From Candidatus Omnitrophota bacterium (lineage in GTDB: Bacteria > Omnitrophota > Omnitrophia > Omnitrophales > Aquincolibacteriaceae): 64,000 nucleotides of DNA. Below the pieces are notes generated by a model. That model was not told where the DNA came from. It did no database searches and saw only the letters and a program-made list of their open reading frames with translations. Both the position numbers and the translations under genes were made by a program. Location of the stretch: positions 86,215 through 150,214 of the forward strand of contig JAFGHI010000047.1 in the NCBI GenBank assembly GCA_016930235.1. The letters run 5' to 3'. Of the stretch, positions 26,830 through 48,279 are shown piece by piece (within the stretch, counting starts at the first letter, position 1; each line of letters begins with the position of its first letter).

Positions 26830-28106
26830 GGCCGCCGTTGACCCTTTAAACGATTTGGCTTTGGCCTCTCTTTGCAGAAACGACTGCGAAAAAAACAGGA
26901 CAGCCAAAAAAGAGCGACAACGATATATGGAAAGATATAAGGTTTAAACGGAGCTAAGTAACGGGGTTCGACATGAAAAGGAATATGTAAAACGGTCATA
27001 TAAATAAAGGAAAACCAAAAAACGGACAAATCCTTTCCCTGTTTGCGGGTAAGAAATAAACCGACAATGAAAAACACCAATAAAGCCGAATCAAAAATAA
27101 CGACCGTCTCGCGCACGGCCGGCCCAGACCGGCTTGGATAACTTATCCACAGCCGGAGCACTCTCACCCCACAGCCCTTGAGATACTCAAGAGGACTCTC
27201 CGTAATACGACTTAAGGTTTCCCGAATATAAAGCGCTTCCAAATCGAGCGAAGGATCTTGTTGATAGGCCGTTTCTAATTTGCGATGGATCTCGTCAAGT
27301 TCGCGTCTTCTCGGATCTTCCGGATCATCCAACCAAAACCCCCAATGCCATAAATCATACTTCTGATCGACTGTCGCAAGAATCAAATTATGTCCCATAT
27401 TCCCTTTTGACAAAGGAATCCATTCGCGAAAGATTAGATAATTGCGAACCGTCCAAGGAGCGAGAACTATAACCATGGACATCACGAGCAAAACTGTGCC
27501 CCAAAACCATTCTTTCCCGCGTATCCCCTGCCAAAACAAATGCATAAGGATGACAGCCGGGAACAACAGCATGATGGGTTTACATAAAACAAGAAGCCCC
27601 AGGGAAAAACCGGTTGCGGTCAAAAAGAACTTTCTGCGGGTTTTGCCATACTGGATCCAGAACAACACCATGAGGGCTGTCAAAAAGATGCTCAAAATCT
27701 CCGTCAAAATACCCGAGGCATAATAGGCCAATGGAAAATAAAGCGCTAAACCAAGACTTGCCCCCAAGCTCACCTTCTCATCAAAAAAATGACGGGTAAT
27801 ATAAAACAATAAAACGCAACACCCTGAAAATATGAACGATTGAAAAATCAAAACGATCATAGGTTGATGCCCAAAAAAGAAATACAAAACGCCCAGGAAA
27901 AGAGGGTAAAGCGGCGGCTTGAGAATTAAAGGGCCTTTAGGCCCTACCAATCCTTTTCCATTTGCGAAATTCCACGCAAAGGTATCATACCAAGAACCGT
28001 CGGCACTCAAAGGCTGCCGATAATGAAAAACATAAATAAACATCAAGGCATGGAGGAGCGCTATGAACGCAATCGCAATAAGTATCATGTTTCTCTTACT
28101 CAGCAT
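26826..28106 (-). CDS. GT-C fold membrane glycosyltransferase (ArnT-like)
   Basis: FANGKGLVGPKGPLILKPPLYPLFLGVLYFFFG (KPPL signature region of ArnT/GT83-type enzymes), 10+ TM helices. Confidence 0.55.
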   Translation of the reverse strand: MLSKRNMILIAIAFIALLHALMFIYVFHYRQPLSADGSWYDTFAWNFANGKGLVGPKGPLILKPPLYPLFLGVLYFFFGHQPMIVLIFQSFIFSGCCVLLFYITRHFFDEKVSLGASLGLALYFPLAYYASGILTEILSIFLTALMVLFWIQYGKTRRKFFLTATGFSLGLLVLCKPIMLLFPAVILMHLFWQGIRGKEWFWGTVLLVMSMVIVLAPWTVRNYLIFREWIPLSKGNMGHNLILATVDQKYDLWHWGFWLDDPEDPRRRELDEIHRKLETAYQQDPSLDLEALYIRETLSRITESPLEYLKGCGVRVLRLWISYPSRSGPAVRETVVIFDSALLVFFIVGLFLTRKQGKDLSVFWFSFIYMTVLHIPFHVEPRYLAPFKPYIFPYIVVALFWLSCFFRSRFCKERPKPNRLKGQRRP

Positions 28107-28911
28107 GTTCTTTCCTAAAAATGCCGAAAAGACTTGTTCCCCATGGAAGGCAGATATTTATCTTCATAATGAGAAAATTTTCCAGCCGAAGGAGGCGAAA
28201 TAGAATCCAGTTAAGCCCGTAGGGTAGTTTATCAATATCGGAAAGCGGCCTGCCTTGAATCTGCCAAAAGACAACTTTCCGAATAATTCTAATGATCGCA
28301 ATGGGTAAAAATGCAAAGAAATTCCAATGCGTCAAACGGACTCTTTTTAATTTTATCCCTGAAAACAATCGAAGAAATGATTTTCTGCTGTAACGCCTGA
28401 CGTGGCCGAGAAAACGGTCATGCGTGCTGTAAAGAAATGGATGCGCGGGAACAGAAAAAACGATATACCCCCCTGTTTTCAAAACCCGCGTCAATTCCTT
28501 CACGGCCTTCTCATGTTCTTGGATGTGCTCTAAAACGTCGAGACAAATAATAAGGTCAAAAGCTTCACTCGCTAAAGGAAGTTGGATAATATCAGCCTGC
28601 ATGCGATTCTCAGGAATTTGACTAACGGCCTTACGGCTGAAATCGATAGCTAAAAATTTCCCATATTGCTCTAAACCGCCCAAATCATCTCCCGTCCCAC
28701 AGCCAGCGTCCAAGCAAAGAATATGTCTGGGCAACTTGAAAGACGCGAGAAGGGCCAAAATCAACTCTTTCCTGCCTCGAAACCACCAGTAGGATCGATA
28801 AATACCAAACGTCCGATAATTATGCAGACTCTCGAAAATATAACGGCTGAGCCTTTCGAAAAGTGTCTCTCGATCGTTCTTCCGTATTTTGATGTGATCT
28901 TTATTGTCCAT
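28096..28911 (-). CDS. class I SAM-dependent methyltransferase
   Basis: ILCLDAGCGTGDDLGG (motif I), FDLIICLDVLEHIQE, LKTGGYIVFSVP. Confidence 0.8.
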   Translation of the reverse strand: MDNKDHIKIRKNDRETLFERLSRYIFESLHNYRTFGIYRSYWWFRGRKELILALLASFKLPRHILCLDAGCGTGDDLGGLEQYGKFLAIDFSRKAVSQIPENRMQADIIQLPLASEAFDLIICLDVLEHIQEHEKAVKELTRVLKTGGYIVFSVPAHPFLYSTHDRFLGHVRRYSRKSFLRLFSGIKLKRVRLTHWNFFAFLPIAIIRIIRKVVFWQIQGRPLSDIDKLPYGLNWILFRLLRLENFLIMKINICLPWGTSLFGIFRKEHAE

Positions 28912-30171: not shown

Positions 30172-31098
30172 TTAACTCCGGAAGTTTGAGCCCTTCGTTT
30201 GCATCAATTCCCATTTTTGTTTTAAAATCCCGCATCGCCATGCTCCAACGGCCAAAAAAATTATGGGGATACCCCATAAACGATTTTTCCATCCAACAAT
30301 CTTTCGGGCATTTGTCAAAGGCTCATAAATCATTCCCGCAATAAAATTAAAGATCTTGAGGAAATCTTTTATGCAACGCAAACCGTGGGGGAAAATGGAG
30401 TACATAGTTTTCCATTTCTTTCGAACAAGGTAATAGGCCTTGCCATACATATAATATTGATGCAAGAAAGATTTTAAGGTTGCCCGATGATGATGGTAGA
30501 CCTTGATTTCGGGATCGTAGTAGACTTTGTACCCTAGATTTTGAACCCTCCAGCAGAAATCAACATCTTCCCCTCGAAATAATTTCTCATCTTGCTGACC
30601 AACTTTATCGATAATTTCTCGTTTAAAAGAACTATTCACCCCAGGAACGACGCGGACGTACCGTGGGGAAGGCCAGGCTGGAAATGTTAATGCATCAGAA
30701 ACCTTACCTACGATTGCGTCCACATTAGTTCCAATAACAACTCCTCCAACAGCACCGGCTTCCGGATGGTCTTCGTGAGTTTTTTTCATCCGGGTAACCC
30801 AATCAGGGAAAACTTCAGCATCATCATCGGTCAAAGCAATGATATCTCCGCAACAATAAGGAAGCCCAACATTTCGGCTTGTTGCAAGATTTTTATTCTG
30901 TGTTTTGATGAGCCGGATTTTTATAGCGGTTTTTTTTATGAATTGTTCAACAACTTCATCCGCTCTCTCATCTCCCCCATTAACAACAATAATTTCATCC
31001 GGTTTCTCGTCCGTATGCTCAACGAGCGAACACAAGGATTTCCTTAATAACTCATGCCGTTGATAAGTGCAAATTAAGACTGAAAAAGTTTTATTCAT
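30172..31098 (-). CDS. glycosyltransferase family 2
   Basis: FSVLICTYQRHELLRKSLCSL...IIVVNGGDER...ALTDDDAEV (DXD). Confidence 0.85.
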   Translation of the reverse strand: MNKTFSVLICTYQRHELLRKSLCSLVEHTDEKPDEIIVVNGGDERADEVVEQFIKKTAIKIRLIKTQNKNLATSRNVGLPYCCGDIIALTDDDAEVFPDWVTRMKKTHEDHPEAGAVGGVVIGTNVDAIVGKVSDALTFPAWPSPRYVRVVPGVNSSFKREIIDKVGQQDEKLFRGEDVDFCWRVQNLGYKVYYDPEIKVYHHHRATLKSFLHQYYMYGKAYYLVRKKWKTMYSIFPHGLRCIKDFLKIFNFIAGMIYEPLTNARKIVGWKNRLWGIPIIFLAVGAWRCGILKQKWELMQTKGSNFRS

Positions 31099-32203
31099 TT
31101 TTTGATGGTTTTTGAGTTAGATAGCCCAAAAATCTGTCAGCAGCATGATCCCATGTCGAATTTTTCTGCACATAAACTCGGCCCGCTTGCCCCATTCTAT
31201 TTCTAAGATCAGCATCCGTAGCAAGACGAATGATTGCCTGATCGATCTCATTTTCATGAGCCGGGTTGATCAATAACCCTGCCTCTTGCGGAACTGTCTC
31301 TATAAAGCCCTCGGTATTCGAAACAATCACGGGAAGACCGCAACTCATAGCTTCATGACAAGCCACCGAATTGCCTTCGTCATCAGGTAACATCATAAAA
31401 ATATCCGCCATATTGTAGTAATCCGCTAAACTTACGGTTTCCCCTCCAAAATAAATTTTGTCTTCTAACTGAAAATCTAAGACGGCACGGCGAAGATCAG
31501 GCTCGTTCTTCCCTTTACCCAAAATAAAATATCGCAGGCGGGGGATAGATTGACTAAGTCTTTGAACTGCCTTGATTCCTTTCCACGTCCCCTTCCGATC
31601 CTCCAAAGCGGAAACATGAATTACCACAATGTCGTTATCTGAAAAACCGAATTTCTGCCGCAACATTTTCCGTGTCAGCGGGTTCGGAGAAAAATAATCC
31701 GGGTCGGTACCGACCGGCAAGACAGAAACCGAACGTCGGAAAAATCCTTGGGCTTCGTCGGCAATCCAAGTTGCGTCAGCAAGGATACGCTTCGCCACTG
31801 CTCCCCATCCATATTTTCGAAACGAGTGATAGCGATGGGGCACCGATGAATAGGGATAACAAAGGTACAATGTCAGAGGTAGCTCTTTAAAATGGCTTAC
31901 AAATTTCCATGTAGGGCCTTCTCCGTAATCCGCGAAAAACACGACTATGTGGTCATAAGAATGCTTTAAGAAATGTTGCCCGTAAAAAGGTAAAACCGTC
32001 AAATATTTGAAATACCGCCCTGTTGGATAAGTATAGACTTTGACCGCTGGGGCAGGCTGTATAAGGGGTTCCATAAATTTAGACGCTGAAATGATGGATG
32101 CTTCATGCCCCTTTTTGACAAGTGAATTTGAAAGACTGATAATCAGTGTTTCAATGCCACGCCTTAAACGAAAAGTGTGGAAGTGCCAAAACGCAATCTT
32201 CAT
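31091..32203 (-). CDS. glycosyltransferase family 4
   Basis: MKIAFWHFHTFRLRRGIETLIISL...; HEAMSCGLPVIVSNTEGFIETV. Confidence 0.8.
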   Translation of the reverse strand: MKIAFWHFHTFRLRRGIETLIISLSNSLVKKGHEASIISASKFMEPLIQPAPAVKVYTYPTGRYFKYLTVLPFYGQHFLKHSYDHIVVFFADYGEGPTWKFVSHFKELPLTLYLCYPYSSVPHRYHSFRKYGWGAVAKRILADATWIADEAQGFFRRSVSVLPVGTDPDYFSPNPLTRKMLRQKFGFSDNDIVVIHVSALEDRKGTWKGIKAVQRLSQSIPRLRYFILGKGKNEPDLRRAVLDFQLEDKIYFGGETVSLADYYNMADIFMMLPDDEGNSVACHEAMSCGLPVIVSNTEGFIETVPQEAGLLINPAHENEIDQAIIRLATDADLRNRMGQAGRVYVQKNSTWDHAADRFLGYLTQKPSKNE

Positions 32204-33024
32204 TTTTTGACTCCGACACCCAGAATTTGAAGCGATATCTTTTTTCGAATCGTTCGAGGGACTGGAACCATTCGATGGAAAAACTGCCCCAATAGGTAGA
32301 TCATTTCACTCGTCCATGAATAACGCCGGTACCAAGGCGGCCAAAAAAAGAGTGTCTTCCATGGATAAATGCCGTCCAGGACAACGTTTTGAAGTCCCGA
32401 ATCACTCATTTCTTCAGCTAAAATGTCTGCTGTCATGGCATCCACCGGAGGTTGATCTGTATAACCTGGCCATCCCAATTTTTCCCAATAAGCCTTCCAC
32501 GGATGAGCTGTATGCTGAACAATAATAGCTACATGTCCTCCCGGCTTGGTCACCCTAACCATTTCGTCAATAGCTCTTTTTCTCTGATCCTTTTGCGTAA
32601 AATATTCCAAGACTGCCTGGTTGAAGACCAAATCATAGGTATCTGAGGGAATTCCCATTTGTAGAAGGTTCCCCCGGGTAAAACGAATCCGTTGAGCTTC
32701 CCCTTCGGTCTGCACTTTGGCCCACAAACCCTTCCCGATCGAAATTGCCTCCTCATTGTAATCGAAGGCATCAACACGAAACCCAAGCAAAGCCAATGAA
32801 ACGGCGAACATGCCCGTACCGCAACCAGCTTCCAAAACGCGAGTTTTCGAACCCGGATGCCGAACCGTTTGTTTCAACATCCGGCTAATCCATTCGGACT
32901 TTCCATACCGCAAGAGATTCTCTCGGTTCATCGCAGTCGGATCAAACCATGAAAGATCTCCGCGTTGATAGAATGGCCTCCATCGTTCACCGGCTTCGCT
33001 TTTAAGGCCATTGACTACTGCCAT
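32200..33024 (-). CDS. class I SAM-dependent methyltransferase
   Basis: VLEAGCGTGMFAVSLALLG (motif I), YDLVFNQAVLEYF, TKPGGHVAIIV. Confidence 0.8.
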   Translation of the reverse strand: MAVVNGLKSEAGERWRPFYQRGDLSWFDPTAMNRENLLRYGKSEWISRMLKQTVRHPGSKTRVLEAGCGTGMFAVSLALLGFRVDAFDYNEEAISIGKGLWAKVQTEGEAQRIRFTRGNLLQMGIPSDTYDLVFNQAVLEYFTQKDQRKRAIDEMVRVTKPGGHVAIIVQHTAHPWKAYWEKLGWPGYTDQPPVDAMTADILAEEMSDSGLQNVVLDGIYPWKTLFFWPPWYRRYSWTSEMIYLLGQFFHRMVPVPRTIRKKISLQILGVGVKK

Positions 33025-33057: not shown

Positions 33058-36000
33058 CTAAGCATCCGCTTTCGTACAAATATAAATCCAATCTGCTCCT
33101 TTTGTTGAGCCTATCACATAATTATGGGCTTCTACTTTGAACCCCGCCTGTTCAAGACAAAGGAAGAAATCACGGCCGAATTTCATAATCGGTGTTCCTG
33201 TGATCACTTTTCGAGGATCTTTTTTTTCGGTTTTCTGCAATTCTCTATCGCTAAATTCCGAAAGGATCAAAATTCCACCTTTTTTCAAGCACCGATATAA
33301 TTCTTTAATGGCCTTTTCCCAGCCCTCAACGTATTCAAGGACATGGAAACAGATAACGAGATCAAAAGCCTCATCTCGAATACCTAAATGGCATACGTCC
33401 ATAACACTATCTGCCGGTATGAACCCTCGATCAATCGTCACGCAAGAAACTCCTGCCTCCAATAAATATTTCTTCAATCCTAACCAAGGCCCTATATCTA
33501 AACATTTCATCCCCTTTCTTAATAGGCGCCTATCTTCAAATAGCTGGACAAGCCCACGATGCCTTTCCAAACTACGGCATTTTGGACACTGAGCCCCTGG
33601 CCGATAAGCCCAAGGAGAAACAACGGGGAAAAACTCAACCCCCTTCCAACCGCAAATGCTACAAACTTTACCCTTAAAACTTTGGGGGACTATTGCATTC
33701 ACGACCGATAACCCAAATTTGACTAAAAGCCCCTTCGCCCATTGAAGAAACTGTCCGCTTTTGATCCATTGCCGTAATTTCACTATAAAATTTTTTGTTG
33801 TTCGCTCATCGCCTAATTTGGAAATCTGACCATAAAATAAATCTATATATTTTTCAGCGATCGTTCCCCAGCAATATTTCTCTTCAACAACGATTCTCCC
33901 GGTTCTCCCCATTTCTTTCCTTAAATTTTGAGAGTTTAAAAGTTTTTTGATGGCTCTGCCGAGTTCTTCAGCATTGGTTTCATCCACCAGGAAACCCGTT
34001 TCCTTTGTCACTAAATCAGGGTAAGGCACATGCCTGGAGACAATCACCGGAAGCTCCATCGCAAAAGCCTCTAAGATCACATTAGGAAATCCCTCGCCTT
34101 TGGACAAAAGGATGAAAATATCCGCCAAGGCATAGTAAGGGAGAATATCTACCCCTTCCGTCACAAAATGAACATGCGAATTAAGATTTAGTTTCTGAAC
34201 TAAACGATGCAACTTTGAATAATAGGGCCCGGCCCCGACTATCCAATACCGAACAGGAATATTCTCATCAACCATTTTCCGGACAGCCCTAATGACATGC
34301 TGGATACCTTTGCGTACCTCAAGAGCCGAAACAGTAAGCAAAACGCATTCGTTTTCATAAATTCCGAACATTTTTCGGATATTGTTTCTATTGTGATCTT
34401 GCGGTTTGAATTTTTGATGATCAATCCCATTAGGAATAACCTGCACCTTCCTTCCAAAAAAGGAGGCAACACCTTGAGCCATCGGACCCGTTTTTACAAC
34501 AATCCCATCAATTGCTTTATCGAACCTTAAAAACTTGAATTTCTTGAACCGGTGCGACGTATGCTCAAAAGGATACCCAACGATAAAATTAATTTTGGTT
34601 TTTTTAATATACCGTAGGATTTTAAGCGGAAGGGCCTCGCCACAATCCGAAAAGTAAATATTGACGGCATCATAATCATTTTTCAGGAACCAATAAAGAT
34701 AGAACGGGATAACAAGAATAGCTTGAAAATACCTGAAACGCGGACTTTTGATTAGTTTCACTTCCGGAGAAACTGCTGTTACGGAACACCCTAGGTCACC
34801 GCTCCATGTATAGAGATCGACCTTGTGTCCGCGCGCCGCCAATTCATTCGCCAAATGAATGCTTGAACGTTCAATCCCTCGAAAATATCGGAACAAAAAC
34901 GGAGAAATGATCGCTATTTTTAAAGGACGTTTCCTTATCCCCTGCCATTCTTCTTTTCCCAAGTCGAAACAATCACGAAAAAGCTTGAGATATTCATTGG
35001 CAATAACACTCCAGGCATATTTTTTAACGGCCTGTTCACGGTTTGCTTTCCCCATTTGCAAACGCTTATCAGAAGAATCAAGAAGGTCGGAAACAACCTG
35101 GCACACTTTACCAATTTCTTCCCGTTTGACATAATGAGCTCCATTCTGAGCAGCCATTTGATTTAGCGGAGGATTGTCTGCAAGCACAAGCGGTAGTCCG
35201 GAAGACATTGCTTCCAACAAAGCTAAAGGTGACCCTTCCCCTTTGGAAAGAAATAAGAAAATATCGGAGGCAAGATAATAATCTGAAGTATTTGTAACCG
35301 CGCCTCCAAACTTAACATGTTTTTCAAGGCGGTGCATTTCAACATGTTTTTTTAACTTTTTGGCCTCCGGGCCATCTCCCAAAACAAGATACAAAACATC
35401 CGGATGACTTTGGCGAACCTGATCAATAACATCAATGCAATAATCTATCCCTTTACGCTTTTCAAATGCGGCAATCGTAAGAATAATTTTCATATCTAAA
35501 GGAAGGCCTAACTTCGCCCTTAAATCTTTTTTGTTCGTATTCTTTGCGAGACAAAACTCCTCGGGATTAACACCGCTTGAAATCACCGGGATTTTCCTGT
35601 TCAGCAAAAACGCCGCCTGCTCAGCGACATAATCGCTGACCCCAACAATGACTTTTGCATGCTTCACTAAAAAACATTTTTCCATCATACGGTAACGGTG
35701 TGGAACTTGTTCGGCAGGATAATGAAGAATCAAACAAGTCGAAGCTAGAAATTCAGGCGCCAATCGAAAAGCAATATTCTCGCCATGCCATGCAAACAAA
35801 ATGCATGTTACATCGGGTCGCAATTTTCTTAAAATAAAAGGATAAATAATGCCTGCGAAAAAGCTGCGGAAATATTTGGGCAAGCAAACAGTATGAAGGT
35901 GCACATTTGTCTCTAACGGTCCCCAAGGCCATGCCTTATTTTCTTTCCACGTAATAATGTGAACATCAACACCTTGTTTTGAAAAAGAATTAGCCACCTC

Positions 36001-36066
36001 AACCGTAAAACGTTCGATCCCTCGAAGGTGACGAAATAAAAAAGGTGATATTAAAACAATCTTCAC
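33058..36066 (-). CDS. tri-domain enzyme: GT4 - GT4 - SAM methyltransferase (1002 aa)
   Basis: Two full GT4 units (MKIVLISPFLFRHLRGIERF...EAMSSGLPLVLADNPPL; then LKIAIISPFLFRYFRGIERSS...LEAFAMELPVIVSRHVPY). Then a zinc-ribbon-like CSICGW...CPKCRS and the methyltransferase core MKCLDIGPWLG...FDLVICFHVLEYVEG...LKKGGILILSE. Confidence 0.8.
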   Translation of the reverse strand: MKIVLISPFLFRHLRGIERFTVEVANSFSKQGVDVHIITWKENKAWPWGPLETNVHLHTVCLPKYFRSFFAGIIYPFILRKLRPDVTCILFAWHGENIAFRLAPEFLASTCLILHYPAEQVPHRYRMMEKCFLVKHAKVIVGVSDYVAEQAAFLLNRKIPVISSGVNPEEFCLAKNTNKKDLRAKLGLPLDMKIILTIAAFEKRKGIDYCIDVIDQVRQSHPDVLYLVLGDGPEAKKLKKHVEMHRLEKHVKFGGAVTNTSDYYLASDIFLFLSKGEGSPLALLEAMSSGLPLVLADNPPLNQMAAQNGAHYVKREEIGKVCQVVSDLLDSSDKRLQMGKANREQAVKKYAWSVIANEYLKLFRDCFDLGKEEWQGIRKRPLKIAIISPFLFRYFRGIERSSIHLANELAARGHKVDLYTWSGDLGCSVTAVSPEVKLIKSPRFRYFQAILVIPFYLYWFLKNDYDAVNIYFSDCGEALPLKILRYIKKTKINFIVGYPFEHTSHRFKKFKFLRFDKAIDGIVVKTGPMAQGVASFFGRKVQVIPNGIDHQKFKPQDHNRNNIRKMFGIYENECVLLTVSALEVRKGIQHVIRAVRKMVDENIPVRYWIVGAGPYYSKLHRLVQKLNLNSHVHFVTEGVDILPYYALADIFILLSKGEGFPNVILEAFAMELPVIVSRHVPYPDLVTKETGFLVDETNAEELGRAIKKLLNSQNLRKEMGRTGRIVVEEKYCWGTIAEKYIDLFYGQISKLGDERTTKNFIVKLRQWIKSGQFLQWAKGLLVKFGLSVVNAIVPQSFKGKVCSICGWKGVEFFPVVSPWAYRPGAQCPKCRSLERHRGLVQLFEDRRLLRKGMKCLDIGPWLGLKKYLLEAGVSCVTIDRGFIPADSVMDVCHLGIRDEAFDLVICFHVLEYVEGWEKAIKELYRCLKKGGILILSEFSDRELQKTEKKDPRKVITGTPIMKFGRDFFLCLEQAGFKVEAHNYVIGSTKGADWIYICTKADA

Positions 36067-38561
36067 AGCGAATAGTCTCTGTGGGTTTTCGCCCTGTTCA
36101 TTTTCATGCTTGTTTGTTCCACAACTTCAAGAATCGCATCGGCAGTTTTCTCCCACGTGAAGGACTTAGCTCGAGCTAAACCGAGATCTCTTTGCTTCTG
36201 CTTCCAGCCTTGACCTTGTTGACTCATTCTCCAGATCGCATCAGAAATGGATTCGGCATCGTTTGGATCAAAAGGCAATCCAACATTACCTGCGACTTCC
36301 GGCAATGTTGTCGCCGAAGAGTAAAGGACAAGACATTGGCATGCCATCGCTTCAAATAACACCAAACCAAACCCTTCGAAAATTGAAGGGTAAATCATCG
36401 CCTCGGCACCGGAATATAAAACCGGCAATTCCCGGGGTAGCACTTCACCCAATATCACGACATTCTCTGATAAACCCAATTCTCTCATCCCGCTTTTGAT
36501 TTTTTCGGCCGATTCCTTCCATTCCAACGACCCGCTTAACACTAATTGATAGGGCCATTGATCTTTCTTTTTAAGTATTGCTACGGCCTCAAATAATTTT
36601 CTGTGGTTCTTATGGGGCCAAAATCCAGCCGGATAAAATAAATAAGGTTTGTGGATTTTGTATTTTGAGCGAATCGGGAGGACTTCATCCTCCGATTTTC
36701 TTGTAAAGAACCCGCTATCAACCCCGTAGGGGACGACATAAATTTTATTTCCTTCAATCCCGTATGTTTCCATAATTGTCTTTTTAGTGTGGTCGGCCGG
36801 GGCAATGATGGCATCGGCATGGGTTACGGCTTCTCGGTATTGCTTACGCTTAGCATGCCTCGTTTTAAACTCGTCAATATATTCATAAATCAAATCATGG
36901 ACGACGACAATCGAGGGCAAACAAATCGACCGATCGATATCCGGAGAAGGATATAATACAGCGCCGATGGATGAATCTTTTTCGATCATCTTCGCCACGG
37001 ATTCCTCTCGAGCGAATCCTCTCAATAATTTCTTCACCGCTCGTTTCCAAAGAGGGGCGGGTTCCCATGTCGGGATAACTGTTAGTTTCATACGATGATC
37101 CAAAAAAGGCTTCCACAAATGCCCATTTTGATTTGATGCCATAATGACAGACTCAAAGGGCTTCTTCATCTCGGCAAACCCCTTCATAATTCCCTGCGAA
37201 AATGTTTTCCCTCCATACAACTTATATGCAGGAACATCAAGCATAGAAATTGCAAATTTGAATCTCGACGCTGTTTCATTATCAACTCGACCCCGGACTT
37301 CTGTTTTAAGAGAAACAACTTCCGTCACGAAATCAAGATAATCATCCGCTACTTTATTGTGATCATAGAGCCGGCTCATTCTTTCAAAACCAGCTACGCC
37401 CATGTTTTTAAGCATTTTTGCATCGCTTGCAAGCCGGATAATCGCTTCGGACAATTCAATGCCATGATCAGGTTTCACGAGTATTCCCGTTACTTGATCC
37501 TCTACTGTTTCGGCGATTCCCCCAATCCGGGATGCAACCACCGGAATACCCATCGCCGCCGCTTGAGCGCATGTATAAGAAAAACTCTCATAGATGAGCG
37601 ATGGAACAACCGCAAGATCAGCTCTTCTGTACCATTGTAGAAGTGTCTCCTGATCAACAAAACCCACGCAGGTAACCTGTGCTTCTAGCCCAGCATTTTT
37701 AAAATATTGTTTCATTCTCTGACCTTGAGTTTGCTTTTCTCCGTAATATCTGTCTTCACCAATGATCACAAAATGAATATTTTTGACATCCGCGCACACT
37801 TTCGATATGGCATTTTTAAGAACCTCAATCCCCTTCACCCTCTCAAGCCGTCCGACATACAGGACAATCTTTTTGCCAGTAAGCTTACCTTCCGGATCTA
37901 CCTTTGAATATTCAGTTTTGTCTTGAGTTAACCGGGCGGTTTCAAACATCTTCAAATCTAACGAATTGGGAATGACCTTCTTTATGGAATTCTTCGATGA
38001 GCAAACGCTCAGTATGACCCTCATCATATCTCCCGAGGGCGCTGTAATTCCATCTGCGCGACAAATACAATATTTCTCCATCCACTCAATTACGGCTGTG
38101 GAAAAAGGCATCTCGGAAGGGGCATAATACTTTTTTAAAATAAAAATAGGCGTATGACAACGGACAAGAACAGGATGTCTCTTTTTTCTTAATAGATGAA
38201 AAAAACCTTCGCCCTCAACCTCTGCAAATTCAATACAATCAATGGGAATGGTTCTTTCAAGCTTTTTTAACTTTTGGGAAACTTTAAAGCTGTAAAAGAG
38301 TTGATTCGCGGTACGGAAAAACCGGCCCACCAGAAACAATCGTGTCGGCCAATAGGGAGAAGCATGATAAATTCGATGAACTGCTATCCCTTCTCTTTCT
38401 TCAATCTCCGGGATTTCTTTAGTACAACGAGAAGCAACGATCGTCACACGATGACCTTTCTTCACTAATGCTTTTGAAAGATAGTAATTACACATAGCAA
38501 TCCCGCCATATCCGCTGTGCGGCGGAAACCAGCGATTGACCAAAACGATGCTATAGCTCAT
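36063..38561 (-). CDS. tandem GT4 - GT4 glycosyltransferase (about 830 aa)
   Basis: MSYSIVLVNRWFPPHSGYGGIAMCNYYLSKAL... with AQAAAMGIPVVASRIGGIAETVEDQVTGILV. A second unit follows, ending ...FEAMACQCLVLYSSATTLPEV. Start set at the ATG with ATGA overlap; the ORF-track start is 38606. Confidence 0.8.
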   Translation of the reverse strand: MSYSIVLVNRWFPPHSGYGGIAMCNYYLSKALVKKGHRVTIVASRCTKEIPEIEEREGIAVHRIYHASPYWPTRLFLVGRFFRTANQLFYSFKVSQKLKKLERTIPIDCIEFAEVEGEGFFHLLRKKRHPVLVRCHTPIFILKKYYAPSEMPFSTAVIEWMEKYCICRADGITAPSGDMMRVILSVCSSKNSIKKVIPNSLDLKMFETARLTQDKTEYSKVDPEGKLTGKKIVLYVGRLERVKGIEVLKNAISKVCADVKNIHFVIIGEDRYYGEKQTQGQRMKQYFKNAGLEAQVTCVGFVDQETLLQWYRRADLAVVPSLIYESFSYTCAQAAAMGIPVVASRIGGIAETVEDQVTGILVKPDHGIELSEAIIRLASDAKMLKNMGVAGFERMSRLYDHNKVADDYLDFVTEVVSLKTEVRGRVDNETASRFKFAISMLDVPAYKLYGGKTFSQGIMKGFAEMKKPFESVIMASNQNGHLWKPFLDHRMKLTVIPTWEPAPLWKRAVKKLLRGFAREESVAKMIEKDSSIGAVLYPSPDIDRSICLPSIVVVHDLIYEYIDEFKTRHAKRKQYREAVTHADAIIAPADHTKKTIMETYGIEGNKIYVVPYGVDSGFFTRKSEDEVLPIRSKYKIHKPYLFYPAGFWPHKNHRKLFEAVAILKKKDQWPYQLVLSGSLEWKESAEKIKSGMRELGLSENVVILGEVLPRELPVLYSGAEAMIYPSIFEGFGLVLFEAMACQCLVLYSSATTLPEVAGNVGLPFDPNDAESISDAIWRMSQQGQGWKQKQRDLGLARAKSFTWEKTADAILEVVEQTSMKMNRAKTHRDYSL

Positions 38562-40657
38562 ACGCCTGATTTCTCCTTTAAATGCCGACAATGGATTAAA
38601 GGACAATCGATATAGCCGGGATAAAGAATATTCACTGAATGGTACCGCCTTTGAAGGCTGTCCACCAATTGATCGAAAGAGTAACGATGATCACGCGGGG
38701 GGTTATGTACCTCCATCCAAATTTCTTCAATCGGTATCTTAAAGAAATTTGGATCTTCTAAAATTACATTATATTCCCCCCCTTCAATATCCATTTTAAA
38801 AAGATCGACTTTTGTTATCCCGTTATCTTGGCAAAATTGAGAAAAACTCTTGCTTTGAACTTCAACCTTCTCATCTGGAAACTCCGCGTTATAAGGATAG
38901 AGAGAGGAGAAACCGGACATTTTAGATATATAAAAATCTGTAAGCGTTCCTGGCTGAGACTGGATTGCAAAGTGATAAGGATAAATTTTCCCTTTAAAAC
39001 ATTCTTGCCGCGCGGTCCTCTCCAACACCTCATAAACATAAGGATTGGCTTCTATGGCATGAACTTCCGAATTTGGCATCTTCATATGGGCCAAAAGGGA
39101 GAAAAGGCCGATATGAGCACCGACATCAACAACTATTTTTTTATTCCGACCATATCGAATTCGGTAATTCTCCGTAACAAATATTTCGTCAAAAACCCTC
39201 CAACTAGTAAAACTATCATAAACTTTGACCCTGGCGCCGCATCGGAACAAAAACTCCCGAATTTCGACTTTGTCAGTTCGTGCCGCTAAATACTGCCTCC
39301 AATTCTTAAGATAAAAAAATGCTTTAAACCGGACCATCCAATAAGCAGGCCGCCAAGCGAAATAACGCTTCCACAAATCATCAACCCTTGCGCTAAAATC
39401 AGCCCTTTCAACCGTGATGGATCTTTCCAATATCTTTTCAAAATTCCTGGAGGCTATTTCCCAATTCCATTTATCACGAACATATTGTTTCCCTTTTTGA
39501 GACATCGATTTCCAAAGATCCTCTTCTTTAATAAGCTTCAGCACTTTTGAAGCAAATTCCTGGGGATCAAAATCGGAAAGAAACCCTACTTCTCCATCCA
39601 ATACGGTTTCCCGAACACCCCCCGACTTAACGGCTACCACAGGAAGGCCCATAGCCATCGCTTCGAGCGGCGCCATTCCAAAGGGCTCTAGTCTTGAGCC
39701 GTAGACGAAAACTTTGGCTGTGCCATAAAGTTCGCATAATTCTTTCTCTGAAACCCTTTCTCTAATTTCTACTTGAACCTCTAAGTTTTCACAAAGCCGA
39801 ATAAGGTTCTTGCGACGCTCTTCGCGACAGCAATCAACAACAACCACCCATCGGGGGCGTTTGTCTTTGGGAATCAAACTCAAAGCTCTTACGACAAAGG
39901 CATGCCCTTTATTTGCCGTCAAGGACCCCACTGTTAAAACAAAGTTTCCGCGTTCCGGTCCCGTAGGCGCCATCACGAATCGCTCTAAATCAATGGCCGG
40001 ATAAAAAACTTTCGCTTCATAACCATAAGCCATAAAGATTTTCTCAGCTGAGAAATAAGAGTTTGCTAATACCGTCCCGTGACAGCATCTCGGAAAATTT
40101 TTATCGGCCTCCTTTTTCCACAAATAATGAAATAGAGCAATTGCTGGTTTATACCAAATCGAGACTATCTTGGAAACTAGCGGCTTGGCTTCCCCATCGT
40201 TTTCCAGCTCATCATGAAAAAGTGCCGGCGGGTCATAAAAAAGGCGTTCCGGTTCCTGAAGGTAAAGAAAAAAACGTGTTTTAAGATACCGGGTTAAATG
40301 GGGAATTTTGACATATTGATCAATCCCGATAAAAACGAAATCGTAATTTTTCCGGTCTATTTCTTTCGCTAATATTTTTGCGGTTTGATCCAGGGATCTG
40401 AGATTTCTCCAAAAAAAGTATGCATTAACATACTCACGAATGATCGGACAATGCCCAGAAATACGCGGCTTTAAAAAAACAGGGATTTCATAGCACTCAT
40501 CAGCCATGGATGATAGAGGAGAAAAATCTTCCCCAGCTTTGTTAAACCGATAGAGATCTAAGTGATACCCCATCGCTTTCAACATCTTCATGACACCATG
40601 GAGTAAAACAACCGCTCCGCCGAGATGATGGTGATTAAAGACGGCTACCTTTTTCAT
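38558..40657 (-). CDS. GT4 glycosyltransferase fused to a C-terminal FkbM-family methyltransferase
   Basis: N-terminus MKKVAVFNHHHLGGAVVLLHGVMKM...LEAMAMGLPVVAVKSGGVRETVLDGEVGFL (GT4). C-terminus IVVDVGAHIGLFSLLAHMKMPNSEVHAIEANPYVYEVLER (FkbM-type motif). The first in-window start codon is TTG at 40681; the ATG at 40657 is preferred. Confidence 0.8.
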   Translation of the reverse strand: MKKVAVFNHHHLGGAVVLLHGVMKMLKAMGYHLDLYRFNKAGEDFSPLSSMADECYEIPVFLKPRISGHCPIIREYVNAYFFWRNLRSLDQTAKILAKEIDRKNYDFVFIGIDQYVKIPHLTRYLKTRFFLYLQEPERLFYDPPALFHDELENDGEAKPLVSKIVSIWYKPAIALFHYLWKKEADKNFPRCCHGTVLANSYFSAEKIFMAYGYEAKVFYPAIDLERFVMAPTGPERGNFVLTVGSLTANKGHAFVVRALSLIPKDKRPRWVVVVDCCREERRKNLIRLCENLEVQVEIRERVSEKELCELYGTAKVFVYGSRLEPFGMAPLEAMAMGLPVVAVKSGGVRETVLDGEVGFLSDFDPQEFASKVLKLIKEEDLWKSMSQKGKQYVRDKWNWEIASRNFEKILERSITVERADFSARVDDLWKRYFAWRPAYWMVRFKAFFYLKNWRQYLAARTDKVEIREFLFRCGARVKVYDSFTSWRVFDEIFVTENYRIRYGRNKKIVVDVGAHIGLFSLLAHMKMPNSEVHAIEANPYVYEVLERTARQECFKGKIYPYHFAIQSQPGTLTDFYISKMSGFSSLYPYNAEFPDEKVEVQSKSFSQFCQDNGITKVDLFKMDIEGGEYNVILEDPNFFKIPIEEIWMEVHNPPRDHRYSFDQLVDSLQRRYHSVNILYPGYIDCPLIHCRHLKEKSGV

Positions 40658-40691: not shown

Positions 40692-42572
40692 TTAAAAGAA
40701 TTTTTGCTCTTCCCAATATTGGTAAAACTTACCTTTCTTTTCTATCAACTCATTAAGCATACCTTCCTCAGCCAAACTCCCGTTTTCAATCACAAGGATC
40801 TTGTCAGCATGTTTAACGGTTGATAACCGGTGCGCAATCACGATAGAGGTTCTTCCCTTGACAGCTACATCGATTGCTGTCTGAATTAATCGCTCGGTTC
40901 GCGAATCAAGTGCGCTTGTGGCTTCATCTAAAATAAGTATTTCTGCTTCTTTAAGAAGGGCCCTTGCAATAGCCACCCGTTGTTTTTCACCGCCTGAGAG
41001 CCTGACACCACGGTCACCTATCATGGTATCGAGCTTCTCCGGTAACCGACTGACAAACTCACTCAGTTGCGCTTTGGCAATGGCTTCATAAATTTTTTCT
41101 TCCGGGCACTTCCCCTCTAATCCATAGGTAATATTTGCTCTGAGCGTATCATTAAACAGCAATACGTCCTGACTGATAAAAGAGATGTGCTGTCTTAACG
41201 ATTGAAAAGTAAATTCCCTGATATCTGCTCCATCAACTAATATTGTCCCCGGGGGACAGTCATAAAAGCGCATGAGTAAGTTGATGATCGTTGTTTTCCC
41301 TGCTCCCGTAGGACCGACTATCGCAATCATCTTTCCTTTCTCGATGCTGAAACTTAGATCTTTTAATATGGGCGTATTCTTAAAATAAGAAAAACTCATG
41401 CCCTTAAATTGAATCTCTTTTTCAAGTCCATTGAATTGAACCGCACCTTCGATGACAAAATATTTATCCTTATCATCACGCATCTGCATAATTTTTGAAA
41501 TAGGGCCGCTCGTCCTAGCCAAAGCCAACCTCATTCGATTAAGAACGCCGAATGACCCCATCGCACGCCGAATGACAAAAAAGAACACCAAAAGACTAGA
41601 AATTTCCGCTGCTTGTTCCTTGACGATCACAAAAGCCATCGAGCCCACCAAGATCAGCAGTGCTGCTAAAGTAATAATTTCATGAAGCGGCTGGATAAGA
41701 AACTGCTTTTTAGTCATGCTCACCTGAATCTCTGCAATTAAATCACTGGCCTTTGCAAATTTCTTTTTTTCATCTTCCTCTTTGGTGTAGGCTTTCACCA
41801 AAGGGATGCAAGACAAGATATTAAAAATATCTTCGCTGAGGCTCTGGCTCGCTTGTGCGAAATAGCTTGAGGTTCTTCTCATGTTCTTAACCAGCCAGCT
41901 CAGCGAATAATGCAAGATGGGAAAAACAATTAGACTGAAGATGGTCAATTTCCATGAAAGGAAAAGCATCAAGGCCAAGTAGATAAAAAGAAGGAAGACT
42001 TCAGACAGAAGGGCATGCGCTTCCCGGATCATATACCCTAATTCATGAGTAAACCCTCCCAGCACGGTATGGAGATATCCGGTATTATTCCTGTCAAAAA
42101 ACATCTTGCCGAAGCTTAAATAACGCTCGAAGATTAATTTTCTCAAATTACTGCAAAATTTTTCAATTTGATAGGCAAGCAAAACCGTCGAGCCATACAT
42201 CAAAACATTCTTCGTGACACTCGCAAAGAAAATGACCGCAATAATTAACAAAAAGGTATAGGCGTTCGGTCTTTCATATATGACCTCTGGCATCATATTA
42301 ACAAGATTCCCAAGGATGGGCATCTCGCGAATAAAGCTATAGTCTCTCTCAATCATTCCCTTCATCATGGGGACAAGAAGACCTATGCTAATACCCTCAA
42401 AGACAGCTCCAAGTAACGAAAGAATTGCCGGGATCACTAACAGAATGGGTTTCGCATCCAACCCTCGCATAAAATCTCGCAAGTACCTGAAGGTAAGATA
42501 AATCCTTGCGTTTTGGAGCTTTTCTTTGAGGATCCTTTTACTCTCTCGTTTTTTTTCTGTCCAATAACTCAT
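40692..42572 (-). CDS. ABC exporter, fused TMD-NBD half-transporter (MsbA/PglK-like lipid-linked glycan or lipid flippase)
   Basis: 6 TM helices, then GPTGAGKTTIINLL (Walker A), LSGGEKQRVAIARAL (signature), ILILDEATSALD (Walker B), IVIAHRLSTV (H-loop). Confidence 0.9.
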   Translation of the reverse strand: MSYWTEKKRESKRILKEKLQNARIYLTFRYLRDFMRGLDAKPILLVIPAILSLLGAVFEGISIGLLVPMMKGMIERDYSFIREMPILGNLVNMMPEVIYERPNAYTFLLIIAVIFFASVTKNVLMYGSTVLLAYQIEKFCSNLRKLIFERYLSFGKMFFDRNNTGYLHTVLGGFTHELGYMIREAHALLSEVFLLFIYLALMLFLSWKLTIFSLIVFPILHYSLSWLVKNMRRTSSYFAQASQSLSEDIFNILSCIPLVKAYTKEEDEKKKFAKASDLIAEIQVSMTKKQFLIQPLHEIITLAALLILVGSMAFVIVKEQAAEISSLLVFFFVIRRAMGSFGVLNRMRLALARTSGPISKIMQMRDDKDKYFVIEGAVQFNGLEKEIQFKGMSFSYFKNTPILKDLSFSIEKGKMIAIVGPTGAGKTTIINLLMRFYDCPPGTILVDGADIREFTFQSLRQHISFISQDVLLFNDTLRANITYGLEGKCPEEKIYEAIAKAQLSEFVSRLPEKLDTMIGDRGVRLSGGEKQRVAIARALLKEAEILILDEATSALDSRTERLIQTAIDVAVKGRTSIVIAHRLSTVKHADKILVIENGSLAEEGMLNELIEKKGKFYQYWEEQKFF

Positions 42573-42693: not shown

Positions 42694-43323
42694 TTAAAGC
42701 GGTTGAACACAAGCTTCGTCCACTTGGACTGACACCGATTGCATTAATAAATCAAGCGAGATGACCAAACGGCAGTGCCGATCCTTGCGGACGATATACC
42801 CTTCCGTTCCTTTAAAAGGACCTGTTGAAATATAAACCCGGGCGCCTTCTTTTAAGTAAGGGAACGGATCCAAAGGTATTTCCTCCTCGACAAATTTTCG
42901 AAGACTTACAATATCCTTCTCGGGAACTTCGATCGGATTCGACGGCTTAGGCCCTACAAATCGAACAGCGCCGGCAGTATTTAGCACCTGCCATCTTTCC
43001 TTGAAAGGAATACGAACGAAAAGATACCCTTTGAACAAAGGCTCCTCGATCAATTTTTTGCGATCGGACCATTGCCGTGAAATTCGTCTCATGGGCAGAA
43101 AGGTTTCGATCCCTTTCTTTTGTAATTCCCGATCCGTTAACTTTTCATGCCGGCTCTTGGCATAAAGTGCAAACCAACGTACCTGGTTCCACTTCTTCTT
43201 GATTCCCTCATCCCAAGAAACAGCATTCCAAGATTCTTGCGACTCTTGAATCATGGGATAATCCCCCGTGAAGACAGTTAGAAAACACGGAAATTTATAC
43301 TCATTCTCCCGCGTCTTCCTCAA
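42694..43323 (-). CDS. NusG-family paralog (NGN + KOW), operon-specific transcription antiterminator of the RfaH/UpxY/LoaP type
   Basis: NGN: VRWFALYAKSRHEKLTDRELQKKGIETFLPM...EEPLFKGYLFVRIPF. KOW: EGARVYISTGPFKGTEGYIVRKD. About 40 N-terminal residues fall outside the NGN fold. The ORF-track start is TTG at 43323; an internal ATG lies at about 43254 (MIQESQ). Confidence 0.75.
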   Translation of the reverse strand: MRKTRENEYKFPCFLTVFTGDYPMIQESQESWNAVSWDEGIKKKWNQVRWFALYAKSRHEKLTDRELQKKGIETFLPMRRISRQWSDRKKLIEEPLFKGYLFVRIPFKERWQVLNTAGAVRFVGPKPSNPIEVPEKDIVSLRKFVEEEIPLDPFPYLKEGARVYISTGPFKGTEGYIVRKDRHCRLVISLDLLMQSVSVQVDEACVQPL

Positions 43324-43577: not shown

Positions 43578-43906
43578 AATCTTACTCCTTCTTTTTATGC
43601 GTTGCTTGTTTTTGTTGTACTAAAGTTATAATTCTTTACACTCTTTTATTGAAGATACAGTCAATATTATAAGGTGTCAAGTATTGATAGTTGATACTAT
43701 ACGCTATGGAGAACCTAACCTTTTGATTTAAAGTAACTTAGGTAAATTTGAGCCAAACAAGAATTTCATTGATTCTATAGGCTAAATATACTAAGCTTAA
43801 GGGGAAATGCGTAAGGCAAGAAAGAGCGCCTACTAGCAATGTGATGCAATGAGTAACACCAAAAATACCCGATTTTTAATGCTGTCGGTGCTTCTATAGA
43901 TGGTAT

Positions 43907-47741: not shown

Positions 47742-48113
47742 TTATTCTGTCTGCCAAGGATATTCCGGCAATCCCATAGGCTCTGTCCACGGACGGACAT
47801 CATCCGTAACAAGAGAGACCCAAGGAAACAAGGTAATATCATTCGCTGCCGAGGCCGAACGCACACTTAGGTTATAAACAAACCGTGGGATCCCCGTCAC
47901 AGGCCAAAGTCTTGAATGATCTCCTGATTCCCGTTTGAACGTCATTGGAATTTCAGCCGGCAGCGTAAGGGCATTGACAAGTCCGCGTTTCATCACCGTG
48001 CCCCACCGAGCAAGAGGACTTTTCTCAGTTTGTCTTTCAACGGCGGCATAGCCGGTTGTCAATCCTATCCCTAAAATAACGGTTAAGAAAATAAATGTTT
48101 TTTTCATACGCAT
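47742..48113 (-). CDS. small secreted protein or lipoprotein, paralog of 43984..44493
   Basis: MRMKKTFIFLTVILGIGLTTGYA signal. Core MKRGLVNALTLPAEIPMTFKRESGD...PVTGIPRFVYNLSVRSASAANDITLFPWV aligns with the K-x-GRG-x-N..T / PV-G / G-RV-G pattern of the 43984 protein. Confidence 0.5.
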   Translation of the reverse strand: MRMKKTFIFLTVILGIGLTTGYAAVERQTEKSPLARWGTVMKRGLVNALTLPAEIPMTFKRESGDHSRLWPVTGIPRFVYNLSVRSASAANDITLFPWVSLVTDDVRPWTEPMGLPEYPWQTE

Positions 48114-48194
48114 CTCCTTGTAACATGACCTCAAAAGCACCGCAATAACTTCTATAATACTAGAAGGAACACCCCGATAGCAAAAACTCTCCTC

Positions 48195-48255
48195 AAAAAA
48201 AAACAACCCGCGGCTTTAAAAGGCAATACCCTTTAAAACCGCGGGCTTCTTCTTT
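48195..48255 (-). terminator. probable intrinsic terminator downstream of gene 48280..48744
   Basis: Minus strand reads CCGCGG-n-CCGCGGG, an imperfect GC-rich hairpin followed by TTGTTTTTTTTTGAGGAG (T-run). Confidence 0.45.
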
Positions 48256-48279
48256 TTCGTTTCTGGGCGCGACGATTTC

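Follow-up and report, generated by a model that had tools for sequence, protein, structure and literature searches.

Can one polypeptide both extend a surface glycan and modify it by methylation, and by what route would such a glycan then leave the cytoplasm? The question is raised by three adjacent genes at positions 33058 to 40657 of a 64,000-nucleotide stretch (the window) of contig JAFGHI010000047.1, from the Candidatus Omnitrophota bacterium assembly GCA_016930235.1. They encode fusions of family 4 glycosyltransferase (GT4) domains with each other and with methyltransferase domains. A preliminary description likened them to the multi-GT4 polymerase WbdA and the methyl-capping terminator WbdD, which set chain length in O-antigen synthesis dependent on an ATP-binding cassette (ABC) transporter, and proposed a built-in polymerase-terminator. 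As documented below, the three genes appear, from sequence and gene order, to be a conserved cassette of four GT4 families that has undergone fusion. Elsewhere this cassette seems to belong to genuine ABC-transporter-dependent loci, whereas here it is apparently paired with another class of exporter. With moderate confidence, we interpret the fused cassette as a methylating surface-glycan assembly line whose product would be exported by a half-transporter of the HepA/MsbA/PglK type.

The listing of open reading frames (ORFs) places the three genes next to each other on the minus strand, exactly where the preliminary description had them. In the direction of transcription, the first (38558-40657) encodes a GT4-FkbM fusion protein of 699 amino acids (aa; Pfam, NCBIfam), the second (36063-38561) a GT4-GT4 protein of 832 aa (Pfam) and the third (33058-36066) a GT4-GT4-methyltransferase protein of 1002 aa (Pfam, AlphaFold2). 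The lengths of 707 and 847 aa reported previously for the first two proteins are those of the longest ORFs, which begin with TTG codons at 40681 and 38606, respectively. The likely true start of the 699-aa protein is the ATG at 40657, matching the NCBI annotation, and that of the 832-aa protein is the ATG at 38561, which has an AGGAG Shine-Dalgarno sequence and overlaps the stop codon of the upstream gene as ATGA. The 1002-aa ORF starts with a GTG that overlaps the stop codon of its upstream neighbor as GTGA. The two overlaps, one accompanied by a Shine-Dalgarno sequence, are signs of translational coupling. A hydropathy scan found no transmembrane segment in any of the three proteins. The 699-aa and 1002-aa sequences agree at 100% identity with NCBI entries from a 208-kb contig.

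Domain content was evaluated by a Pfam scan of the whole proteins and of the same proteins cut into seven segments. There are five separate Glycos_transf_1 matches, each near the full length of the model (E = 7.5e-26 to 3.9e-36), and an N-terminal Glyco_transf_4 match in four of the five GT4 units; the domain matches are far beyond chance. In the 699-aa protein, GT4 unit C (39413-40657, minus strand; residues ~1-415; Glycos_transf_1, 8.4e-35; EPFGMAPLE at residue 324) precedes an FkbM methyltransferase domain with an N-terminal extension (38561-39340, minus strand; residues ~440-699; Methyltransf_21, 1.3e-18). The 832-aa protein consists of GT4 units Ba (37302-38561, minus strand; residues ~1-420; Glycos_transf_1, 3.9e-36; Glyco_transf_4, 7.5e-17) and Bb (36066-37241, minus strand; residues ~441-832; Glycos_transf_1, 7.5e-26; EGFGLVLFE at residue 729). 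The 1002-aa protein has units Aa (34969-36066, minus strand; residues 1-366; Glycos_transf_1, 2.2e-30; EGSPLALLE at residue 277) and Ab (33814-34920, minus strand; residues 383-751; Glycos_transf_1, 8.5e-36; EGFPNVILE at residue 658), followed by a zinc-ribbon class I S-adenosylmethionine (SAM) methyltransferase domain (33061-33795, minus strand; residues 758-1002; Methyltransf_11, 3.9e-13; Methyltransf_23, 5.3e-13). The E-x7-E motif is found across the five GT4 units, as an E-x7-Q variant (E325-x7-Q) in Ba, the first unit of the 832-aa protein. Unit C had no Pfam match for its own N-terminal half, and the unit aligns end to end with standalone GT4 proteins of 411-425 aa at 50-52% identity.

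Both methyltransferase domains are similarly well preserved. The FkbM domain scores 83.5 bits against TIGR01444 (cutoff 37.7) in NCBIfam and 68.1 against PF05050 (cutoff 22.7) in Pfam, and keeps all residues that are invariant among 30 homologues, including DVGAHIG, KMDIEGGE and an E..H pair. Its AlphaFold2 model has a class I methyltransferase fold (predicted local distance difference test score, pLDDT, of 81), and the Foldseek matches to this model, which include fibrillarin, TrmR and, ranked fifth, the FkbM structure 2py6, have TM-scores of ~0.4 and carry no information on the substrate. The zinc-ribbon methyltransferase retains all 40 family-invariant columns, including the CxxC...CPxC zinc ribbon. 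When compared with PDB sequences, it gave only generic SAM-motif matches and the FkbM half gave nothing meaningful. The AlphaFold2 model of the 1002-aa protein (mean pLDDT 86) has complete GT-B units at residues 1-366 and 383-751, a Rossmann methyltransferase occupies 834-1000, and short disordered linkers lie at 371-378 and 754-759; the second linker is followed by short helices (758-769 and 772-792) and then by the low-confidence zinc-ribbon region. All seven domains look intact. The second GT units are not degenerate inserts, having near full-length GT4 matches and the motifs and, for Ab, a complete GT-B fold in the model. The previously described complement of five GT4 and two methyltransferase domains, and their arrangement as GT4-GT4-methyltransferase, GT4-GT4 and GT4-FkbM, is borne out by the Pfam and NCBIfam matches, the motifs and the model. 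Units Aa and Ab are also mutual paralogues of a standalone 370-aa GT4 protein encoded nearby at 31091-32203, with 29-33% identity over the full length (30% for Ab and Aa, 33% for Ab and the 370-aa protein); together they constitute a small gene family of the locus, as would fit enzymes that form related linkages or add the same sugar.

How unusual are these proteins? An exhaustive HMMER comparison with 1.84 billion representative proteins returned no other protein that matches all three domains of the 1002-aa protein. The best match is a 763-aa GT4-GT4 protein, with 34% identity, and many of the other matches are proteins of 740-1400 aa with two or three GT4 domains in tandem. The best relatives of the parts are standalone proteins: GT4 proteins of ~365-380 aa with ~40% identity for Aa and Ab (~365-375 aa and ~40-42% for Aa) and methyltransferases of 248-259 aa with 34-42% identity for the zinc-ribbon domain. 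Standalone proteins are likewise the only relatives listed for either half of the 699-aa protein, those of the FkbM half being 226-323 aa long. A GT4 domain is fused to the same type of zinc-ribbon methyltransferase elsewhere, but rarely, in P0276 (707 aa), P0220 and P0274, the last an 1830-aa TylF-GT4-GT2-methyltransferase protein. With the 1002-aa protein as query, a word-index search yielded four weak matches, all to GT4-GT4 proteins. Only generic GT4 matches, none covering 80% of the query, were obtained from one genome per GTDB species, from JGI metagenome contigs (searched with the 832-aa protein) and from plasmids (tblastn), and nothing relevant was found in the literature on Omnitrophota. 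Among the relatives retrieved, the exact architectures have no close full-length counterpart, but mosaic glycosyltransferase/methyltransferase proteins recur in these same comparisons.

Rarity of this kind raises the concern that the fusions are artefacts, either assembly chimeras or the result of sequencing errors that deleted stop codons between genes, and indeed the units are separate genes in relatives and the exact fusions occur in one genome. The four fusion junctions are, however, all in frame, with short linkers and no stops, and a second (Logan) assembly yields 832-aa and 1002-aa proteins identical to those of the window. The junction between Aa and Ab is common to the independent GT4-GT4 homologues P0156 (763 aa) and P0002 (741 aa), and P0276 documents a GT4 fusion with the same methyltransferase type. 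In addition, the units of the 832-aa protein are in the order Ba-Bb whereas the corresponding genes in relatives are in the order Bb-Ba, so that simple read-through of separate genes would not produce this protein. On the strength of the in-frame junctions, the second assembly, the shared junctions and the reversed unit order, an artefact is extremely improbable and was rejected.

The relatives in question are three groups of metagenomic loci (L002/L003, L011/L012 and L013/L014), in which the units are encoded as separate adjacent genes in a conserved order: a C-like GT4, a second GT4, a methyltransferase gene, a Ba-like GT4 and an A-like GT4. In L002, L011 and L013, the C-like protein is 50-52% identical to unit C, the Ba-like protein 37-45% identical to Ba and the last, A-like, protein 36-44% identical to Ab. 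The second GT4 is clearly Bb-like (30% identity) in L002 and L011, and the interleaved methyltransferase gene is present in L011 and L013 only. At the start of L011 are genes for Wzy_C, Wzm, Wzt and an FkbM protein. Two methyltransferases accompany Wzy_C, Wzm and Wzt in L005, a locus that also encodes a GT4-GT4 protein homologous to the 1002-aa one. In L002, a homologue of Wzt is encoded, and sulfotransferases take the place of methyltransferases. Pairwise identity among the Wzt proteins of L002, L005 and L011 is 45-49%; they share 35-44% identity with Escherichia coli O8 Wzt, in alignments that extend past the ATPase domain, and the L005 protein has a weak Wzt_C match (E = 0.006). Their C-terminal extensions may read a terminal cap. 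Since the cassette is present as separate genes in loci that bear Wzm/Wzt, the multi-GT4 proteins most likely belong to cytoplasmic glycan assembly of the ABC-transporter type, and we regard the three genes of the window, by homology and synteny, as the fused form of this four-family (C, Bb, Ba, A) cassette.

Several sulfotransferase genes are present in the cassette loci (10591-13644 in L002; 34-2916 and 11324-12318 in L013), whereas the window and L011 have methyltransferases; judged from this gene content, a glycan backbone common to these loci may carry sulfate in some lineages and methyl groups in others. The FkbM-family protein of L011 (2619-3752; 377 aa) has a 190-residue N-terminal extension and is encoded directly after wzt, the position of wbdD in E. 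coli O8. A heuristic heptad scan found no coiled coil in this protein or in the other methyltransferases of the related loci.

With which exporter does the fused cassette work? Immediately upstream of the GT4-FkbM gene, by 10-34 nucleotides (nt), and as the first structural gene of the operon, is the gene for a 626-aa single-polypeptide ABC exporter of the HepA/MsbA/PglK type (40692-42572, minus strand) with ABC_membrane and ABC_tran domains and six hydrophobic segments. Its NCBIfam scores are 508.6 for HepA_fam (cutoff 725), 404.7 for MsbA (cutoff 602) and 236.7 for PglK (cutoff 1000), and its PDB matches are ABCB1 and MsbA. Pfam and NCBIfam detected no domain in it beyond ABC_membrane and ABC_tran, no Wzt_C match and no carbohydrate-binding module, as had been claimed, and its similarity to the Wzt proteins of the related loci (24-28% identity) is confined to the ATPase domain. 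No other ABC transporter domain is present among the scanned ORFs of at least 150 aa in the window, and so no Wzm/Wzt exporter was found there. The gene set as a whole, with a type IV ABC exporter, a phosphoglycosyl transferase, glycosyltransferases and a Wzy_C ligase-type enzyme, corresponds to that of systems with Wzk, PglK or HepA. The exporter could nevertheless be the MsbA of this organism, a flippase of lipid A-core, with the glycan exported by a system encoded outside the window; adjacency would then say nothing of coupling. MsbA is the second-best NCBIfam match and the best half-transporter match in the PDB, and the presence of GT9 heptosyltransferase-family and ligase-type genes hints at lipopolysaccharide core functions in the cluster as well. 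We nevertheless consider this improbable: the score for the HepA family is ~100 bits higher than that for MsbA, which is itself below the cutoff of 602, the gene heads the operon just upstream of the first fusion gene, and there is no second candidate exporter among the ORFs scanned.

To what extent, then, does the cluster resemble the WbdA/WbdD system? The reference for this comparison was the rfb region of E. coli IAI1 (O8), with the gene order wzm, wzt, wbdD, wbdA, wbdB, wbdC. In BLASTP comparisons, Bb shows a specific similarity to WbdB (33% identity, E = 2e-39) and, at 27% over 313 aa (E = 2e-28), to the first WbdA module; the other four GT4 units reach only 20-25%, a generic GT4 similarity. 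The presence of at least two complete GT4 (GT-B) modules per polypeptide, a feature of WbdA, is established here by Pfam, the motifs and AlphaFold2. The resemblance to WbdA consequently holds for architecture and, in sequence, for one module. For the methyltransferases, resemblance to O8 WbdD is confined to the generic SAM-binding motif, with a BLASTP alignment of no more than a 63-aa stretch there (E = 1e-3); WbdD is absent from the PDB sequence matches of both methyltransferase halves, and Pfam found no kinase domain in the fusion proteins. A search for the coiled-coil molecular ruler, suggested in the preliminary description as a check, gave a negative answer: a heuristic heptad scan, which did detect the coiled coil at residues 250-304 of O8 WbdD as a control, found none in any protein of the cluster, the longest helix after the second GT4 unit in the 1002-aa model has 21 residues, and the linkers of this protein, from alignment to standalone homologues, are only ~13-15 residues long. 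A WbdD-like ruler is very improbable, and membership of the WbdD class fails on the ruler, on homology and on the Wzt partner with a carbohydrate-binding module. The analogy drawn originally stands for multi-GT4 proteins in an ABC-type assembly, with Bb resembling WbdB and WbdA, and falls for the ruler, for homology to WbdD and for a cap-reading Wzt.

These findings bear directly on a strict polymerase-terminator of the WbdA/WbdD type, in which the fused methyltransferase would cap the non-reducing end, stop polymerisation, set the length of the chain and license its export. The multi-module GT4 proteins are like WbdA; Wzm/Wzt serve the relatives of the cassette, with Wzt proteins that are extended at the C terminus and, in L005, weakly match Wzt_C; and in L011 the FkbM gene follows wzt as wbdD does in E. 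coli. Terminator fusions of a methyltransferase with two glycosyltransferases also exist, as WsaE and Klebsiella O7 ORF6 show. WsaE of Geobacillus stearothermophilus is a methyltransferase-GT-GT protein that has been read as responsible for chain extension and a 2-O-methyl cap; its methylation in vitro was independent of chain length (PMC2943079). ORF6 of the Klebsiella pneumoniae O7 locus is a methyltransferase-kinase followed by a coiled coil and two GT2 domains, Klebsiella O12 WbbB combines a terminator, a 3-deoxy-d-manno-octulosonic acid (Kdo) transferase, with the polymerase in one protein, and the distribution of polymerase modules over single-module and multimodule proteins is variable in general (PMC11231755). 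Some Pseudomonas syringae isolates have also been reported to carry glycosyltransferase and O-methyltransferase genes in fused form (PMC7820976). Against a strict terminator in the window are the lack of specific similarity to WbdD and an exporter that has no carbohydrate-binding module and belongs to a class with demonstrated relaxed specificity; the six methyltransferase domains encoded in the operon also argue for more than a cap. We consider it unlikely. As four further standalone methyltransferases share the operon with the two fused ones, methylation is, to judge from gene content, probably extensive rather than limited to a cap, and a purely capping role is not the simplest reading. That at least one of the fused methyltransferases adds a terminal methyl cap remains a tentative proposition, somewhat short of even. 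A built-in polymerase-terminator is no new idea: with WsaE, O7 ORF6, WbbB and the P. syringae fusions, glycosyltransferase-methyltransferase fusions are already known and each element of that idea has a precedent.

In the pathway that we envisage for the assembly line, the fusion proteins would be soluble or peripheral in the cytoplasm and would most likely extend a glycan linked to polyprenyl diphosphate. What the sequence shows is the domains and their intact state, the synteny of the cassette and the class of the exporter; the substrates, the order of action, the polymeric or oligomeric nature of the product and the positions of the methyl groups are those that we infer from the genes. Priming could be accomplished by an 813-aa protein (10175-12616, minus strand), in which a PglC-like phosphoglycosyl transferase (Bac_transf, residues 3-194) is fused with a CoA_binding_3 domain and a PglF-like 4,6-dehydratase (Polysacc_synt_2), together with the DegT aminotransferase encoded next to it (12641-13828, minus strand; Pfam/NCBIfam); this combination suggests, from domain content, a 4-amino-6-deoxy-hexose primer such as bacillosamine. 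Each GT4 module would make one retaining linkage, and O-methylation of sugars in the chain as it grows would be the work of the two methyltransferase domains in cis and the four standalone enzymes in trans. Once complete, the multiply methylated glycan would cross the inner membrane through the HepA/MsbA/PglK-type half-transporter, without cap reading, and on the outer face would be handed to the Wzy_C ligase-type protein (20210-21706, minus strand; Pfam) and to GT-C-like enzymes. By analogy, this route resembles that of Helicobacter pylori Wzk more than the cap-reading route of Wzm/Wzt. Wzk is similar to MsbA and PglK and exports O-chains irrespective of their length or composition (PMC2841628), and hepA of Anabaena sits among glycosyltransferase genes (PMC4390870). 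As a separate candidate, a cytoplasmic polymethylated storage polysaccharide, like the methylmannose polysaccharide of mycobacteria (PMC9883506), was rejected because the phosphoglycosyl transferase, exporter and ligase-type enzyme of the cluster speak for a glycan of the surface.

Is the product of this pathway a polymer? The chances that it is a repeating polymer are evenly balanced, the leaning towards one coming from the use of Wzm/Wzt by the cassette relatives. The alternative is a defined oligosaccharide, for which each module would act once or a fixed few times, a PglK-like exporter would flip the completed product and Wzy_C would transfer it to lipid A-core or to proteins, as in Campylobacter Pgl or lipooligosaccharide synthesis. 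The first steps of the pathway do look like those of Pgl, with the PglC-like/PglF-like fusion and the adjoining PglE-like DegT gene, the exporter is of the PglK/MsbA/HepA class, the domains are many and different (nine GT4, four GT2, one GT9 and six methyltransferases) and neither the heptad scan nor the model revealed a ruler of chain length. The same GT4 cassette occurs, however, in genuine Wzm/Wzt loci, which in characterised systems export polymers; polymerases of the WbdA kind typically show what is seen here, namely paralogous modules (Aa, Ab and the 370-aa GT4) and GT4 domains in tandem; and exporters of the Wzk type also carry long O-chains. A defined oligosaccharide is a serious possibility, albeit a minority one.

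Several observations weigh against the assembly line exported by a HepA/MsbA/PglK-type half-transporter. The exporter does not reach the curated cutoff of the HepA, MsbA or PglK model, and could be a housekeeping lipid A flippase. There are no nucleotide-sugar genes for the main chain in the window and, as the cluster encodes ~14 cytoplasmic glycosyltransferase domains, a polymer is no easier to picture than a long defined oligosaccharide. The exact fusions have been seen in this one metagenome-assembled genome only; the Logan assembly may derive from the same reads. The similarity of the L011 FkbM protein to the FkbM domain of the window is not detectably closer than family level.

A more far-reaching interpretation is that this Omnitrophica lineage rewired a Wzm/Wzt-dependent GT4 cassette to an exporter of the HepA/MsbA type, with methyltransferases welded on, giving built-in termination that needs no ruler and export that does not depend on a cap. 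Chain length would then be set by kinetic competition between glycosyltransferase and methyltransferase, held at a fixed 1:1 ratio in one polypeptide. Both the rewiring and the kinetic mechanism are speculative and must be considered doubtful. If this interpretation is true, the cluster would exemplify a third mode of coupling polymerisation, termination and export, beside the ruler with a carbohydrate-binding module and uncapped Wzm/Wzt export. Should the assembly-line pathway envisaged above hold, the locus would be a compact example, from an uncultured phylum, of a glycan assembly line made of three polypeptides and of one glycosyltransferase cassette that has been plugged into two unrelated classes of ABC exporter. 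The fusions provide Rosetta-stone evidence that the separate GT4 and methyltransferase proteins of the related loci form a physical complex, in agreement with current models of O-antigen synthesis, and the fused proteins could serve as compact enzymes for the synthesis of methylated glycans. As glycosyltransferase-methyltransferase fusions and MsbA-like glycan exporters are both documented, no new question is opened. The preliminary description was reasonable as an analogy: the feature is real and was described correctly, yet it is not a system of the WbdD type and the concept is not new.

The fusion genes and the exporter gene are part of a ~33-kb cluster, all on the minus strand and mostly tightly packed, with many stop/start overlaps and a few gaps of 100-256 nt. 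At its head is a NusG paralogue of the UpxY/RfaH type (42694-43323; Pfam NusG, 5.2e-19; antiterm_UpxY, 143.8 bits against a cutoff of 100), followed by the exporter and the three fusion genes. Next are genes for a methyltransferase, a GT4, a GT2, a GT4, a methyltransferase and two GT-C-like membrane proteins, then for a GT4, a methyltransferase, a UbiA protein, the Wzy_C ligase-type protein and a deacetylase and, to the end, for a GT2, a GT4, a GT9, a GT2, a methyltransferase, a GT2, the DegT aminotransferase and the PglC-like/PglF-like protein, the fourth gene fusion in the cluster. The first two of these, directly downstream of the 1002-aa gene, are a 274-aa class I methyltransferase (32200-33024; Methyltransf_11, 4.1e-17) and the 370-aa GT4 (31091-32203; Pfam), which is 43% identical to the product of the last cassette gene of L011; the rest of the glycan cluster, with GT2 and GT4 genes among others, occupies 10175-30292 (Pfam, NCBIfam, hydropathy). 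Within it are the other three standalone methyltransferases (28096-28911, 22845-23690 and 14547-15257; Pfam/NCBIfam), the GT-C-like membrane proteins (26826-28106 and 24832-26907; Pfam, hydropathy), the UbiA-family prenyltransferase (21722-22588; Pfam) and the GT9 (16283-17473; Pfam). Of the GT-C-like membrane proteins, one is a PMT_2 GT-C protein and the other, of 691 aa, matches PMT_2 weakly (E = 0.0012) and has nine hydrophobic segments; a DUF2079 membrane protein is encoded at 8598-10193 (minus strand). Mycobacteria use polyprenyl-phospho-pentose donors with GT-C transferases and, by analogy, the UbiA, GT-C-like and DUF2079 genes suggest that the glycan may be further glycosylated on the periplasmic side.

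A sigma-70-like site (TTGACA, 17 nt, TATCTT) is present at 43652-43680 on the minus strand, ~330 nt upstream of the NusG paralogue, although as a promoter match it is no better than chance for this region; initiation there would leave the operon with a long leader, like those of operons that RfaH or UpxY controls. Promoter-like and terminator-like sites between 31000 and 45000 are no commoner than in shuffled sequence, and the window has no tRNA genes or Rfam matches. Elsewhere in the window, two adjacent 154-aa ORFs at 47742-48744 are not paralogues. A 2995-aa ORF (54989-63976, minus strand), mostly without domain assignment in Pfam, has scattered matches to a Glu/Leu/Phe/Val dehydrogenase-like Rossmann domain (residues 355-533), HEAT and TPR repeats (~750-955) and a class I methyltransferase (~2290-2385).

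How the cluster stands beside characterised systems can now be stated. As in E. coli O8/O9a (Klebsiella O5/O3), several GT4 modules are present per polypeptide, next to methyltransferase and ABC exporter genes, the assembly would be cytoplasmic and on a lipid carrier, and the relatives of the cassette use Wzm/Wzt homologues. In the window, however, the methyltransferases are fused to glycosyltransferases whereas WbdD is a separate coiled-coil protein; the window proteins have neither a coiled coil nor a kinase and share with WbdD no more than the SAM motif; the exporter, a type IV half-transporter, lacks a carbohydrate-binding module; and there are six methyltransferase domains instead of one. 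With the class of fused polymerase-terminators, the locus has in common a modifying domain and glycosyltransferase modules in one polypeptide, within a glycan locus. WsaE, compared from its published description, likewise has one methyltransferase and two glycosyltransferase domains, but its methyltransferase is N-terminal whereas that of the window protein is C-terminal, and it serves Wzm/Wzt in a Gram-positive S-layer pathway.

Klebsiella O7 ORF6 and O12 WbbB combine a terminator module with two polymerising glycosyltransferase modules, an arrangement that the 1002-aa protein recalls. They have a central coiled-coil ruler, modules of GT2 or other families and a Wzt with a carbohydrate-binding module, whereas the window proteins have GT4 modules joined by linkers of ~13-15 residues, with no ruler or coiled-coil spacer. 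The TET operon of P. syringae, the locus of its common polysaccharide antigen, is by its description coupled to Wzm/Wzt, has a single methyltransferase and is from cultured Proteobacteria. Closest in export are the Wzk, PglK and HepA routes, for which fused glycosyltransferase-methyltransferase proteins are not known and from whose family models the window exporter departs in scoring below the cutoffs. In these routes, as proposed here, a single-polypeptide MsbA-like exporter with no cap-reading module moves a lipid-linked glycan completed in the cytoplasm, and a ligase-type (Wzy_C/WaaL-like) enzyme acts afterwards.

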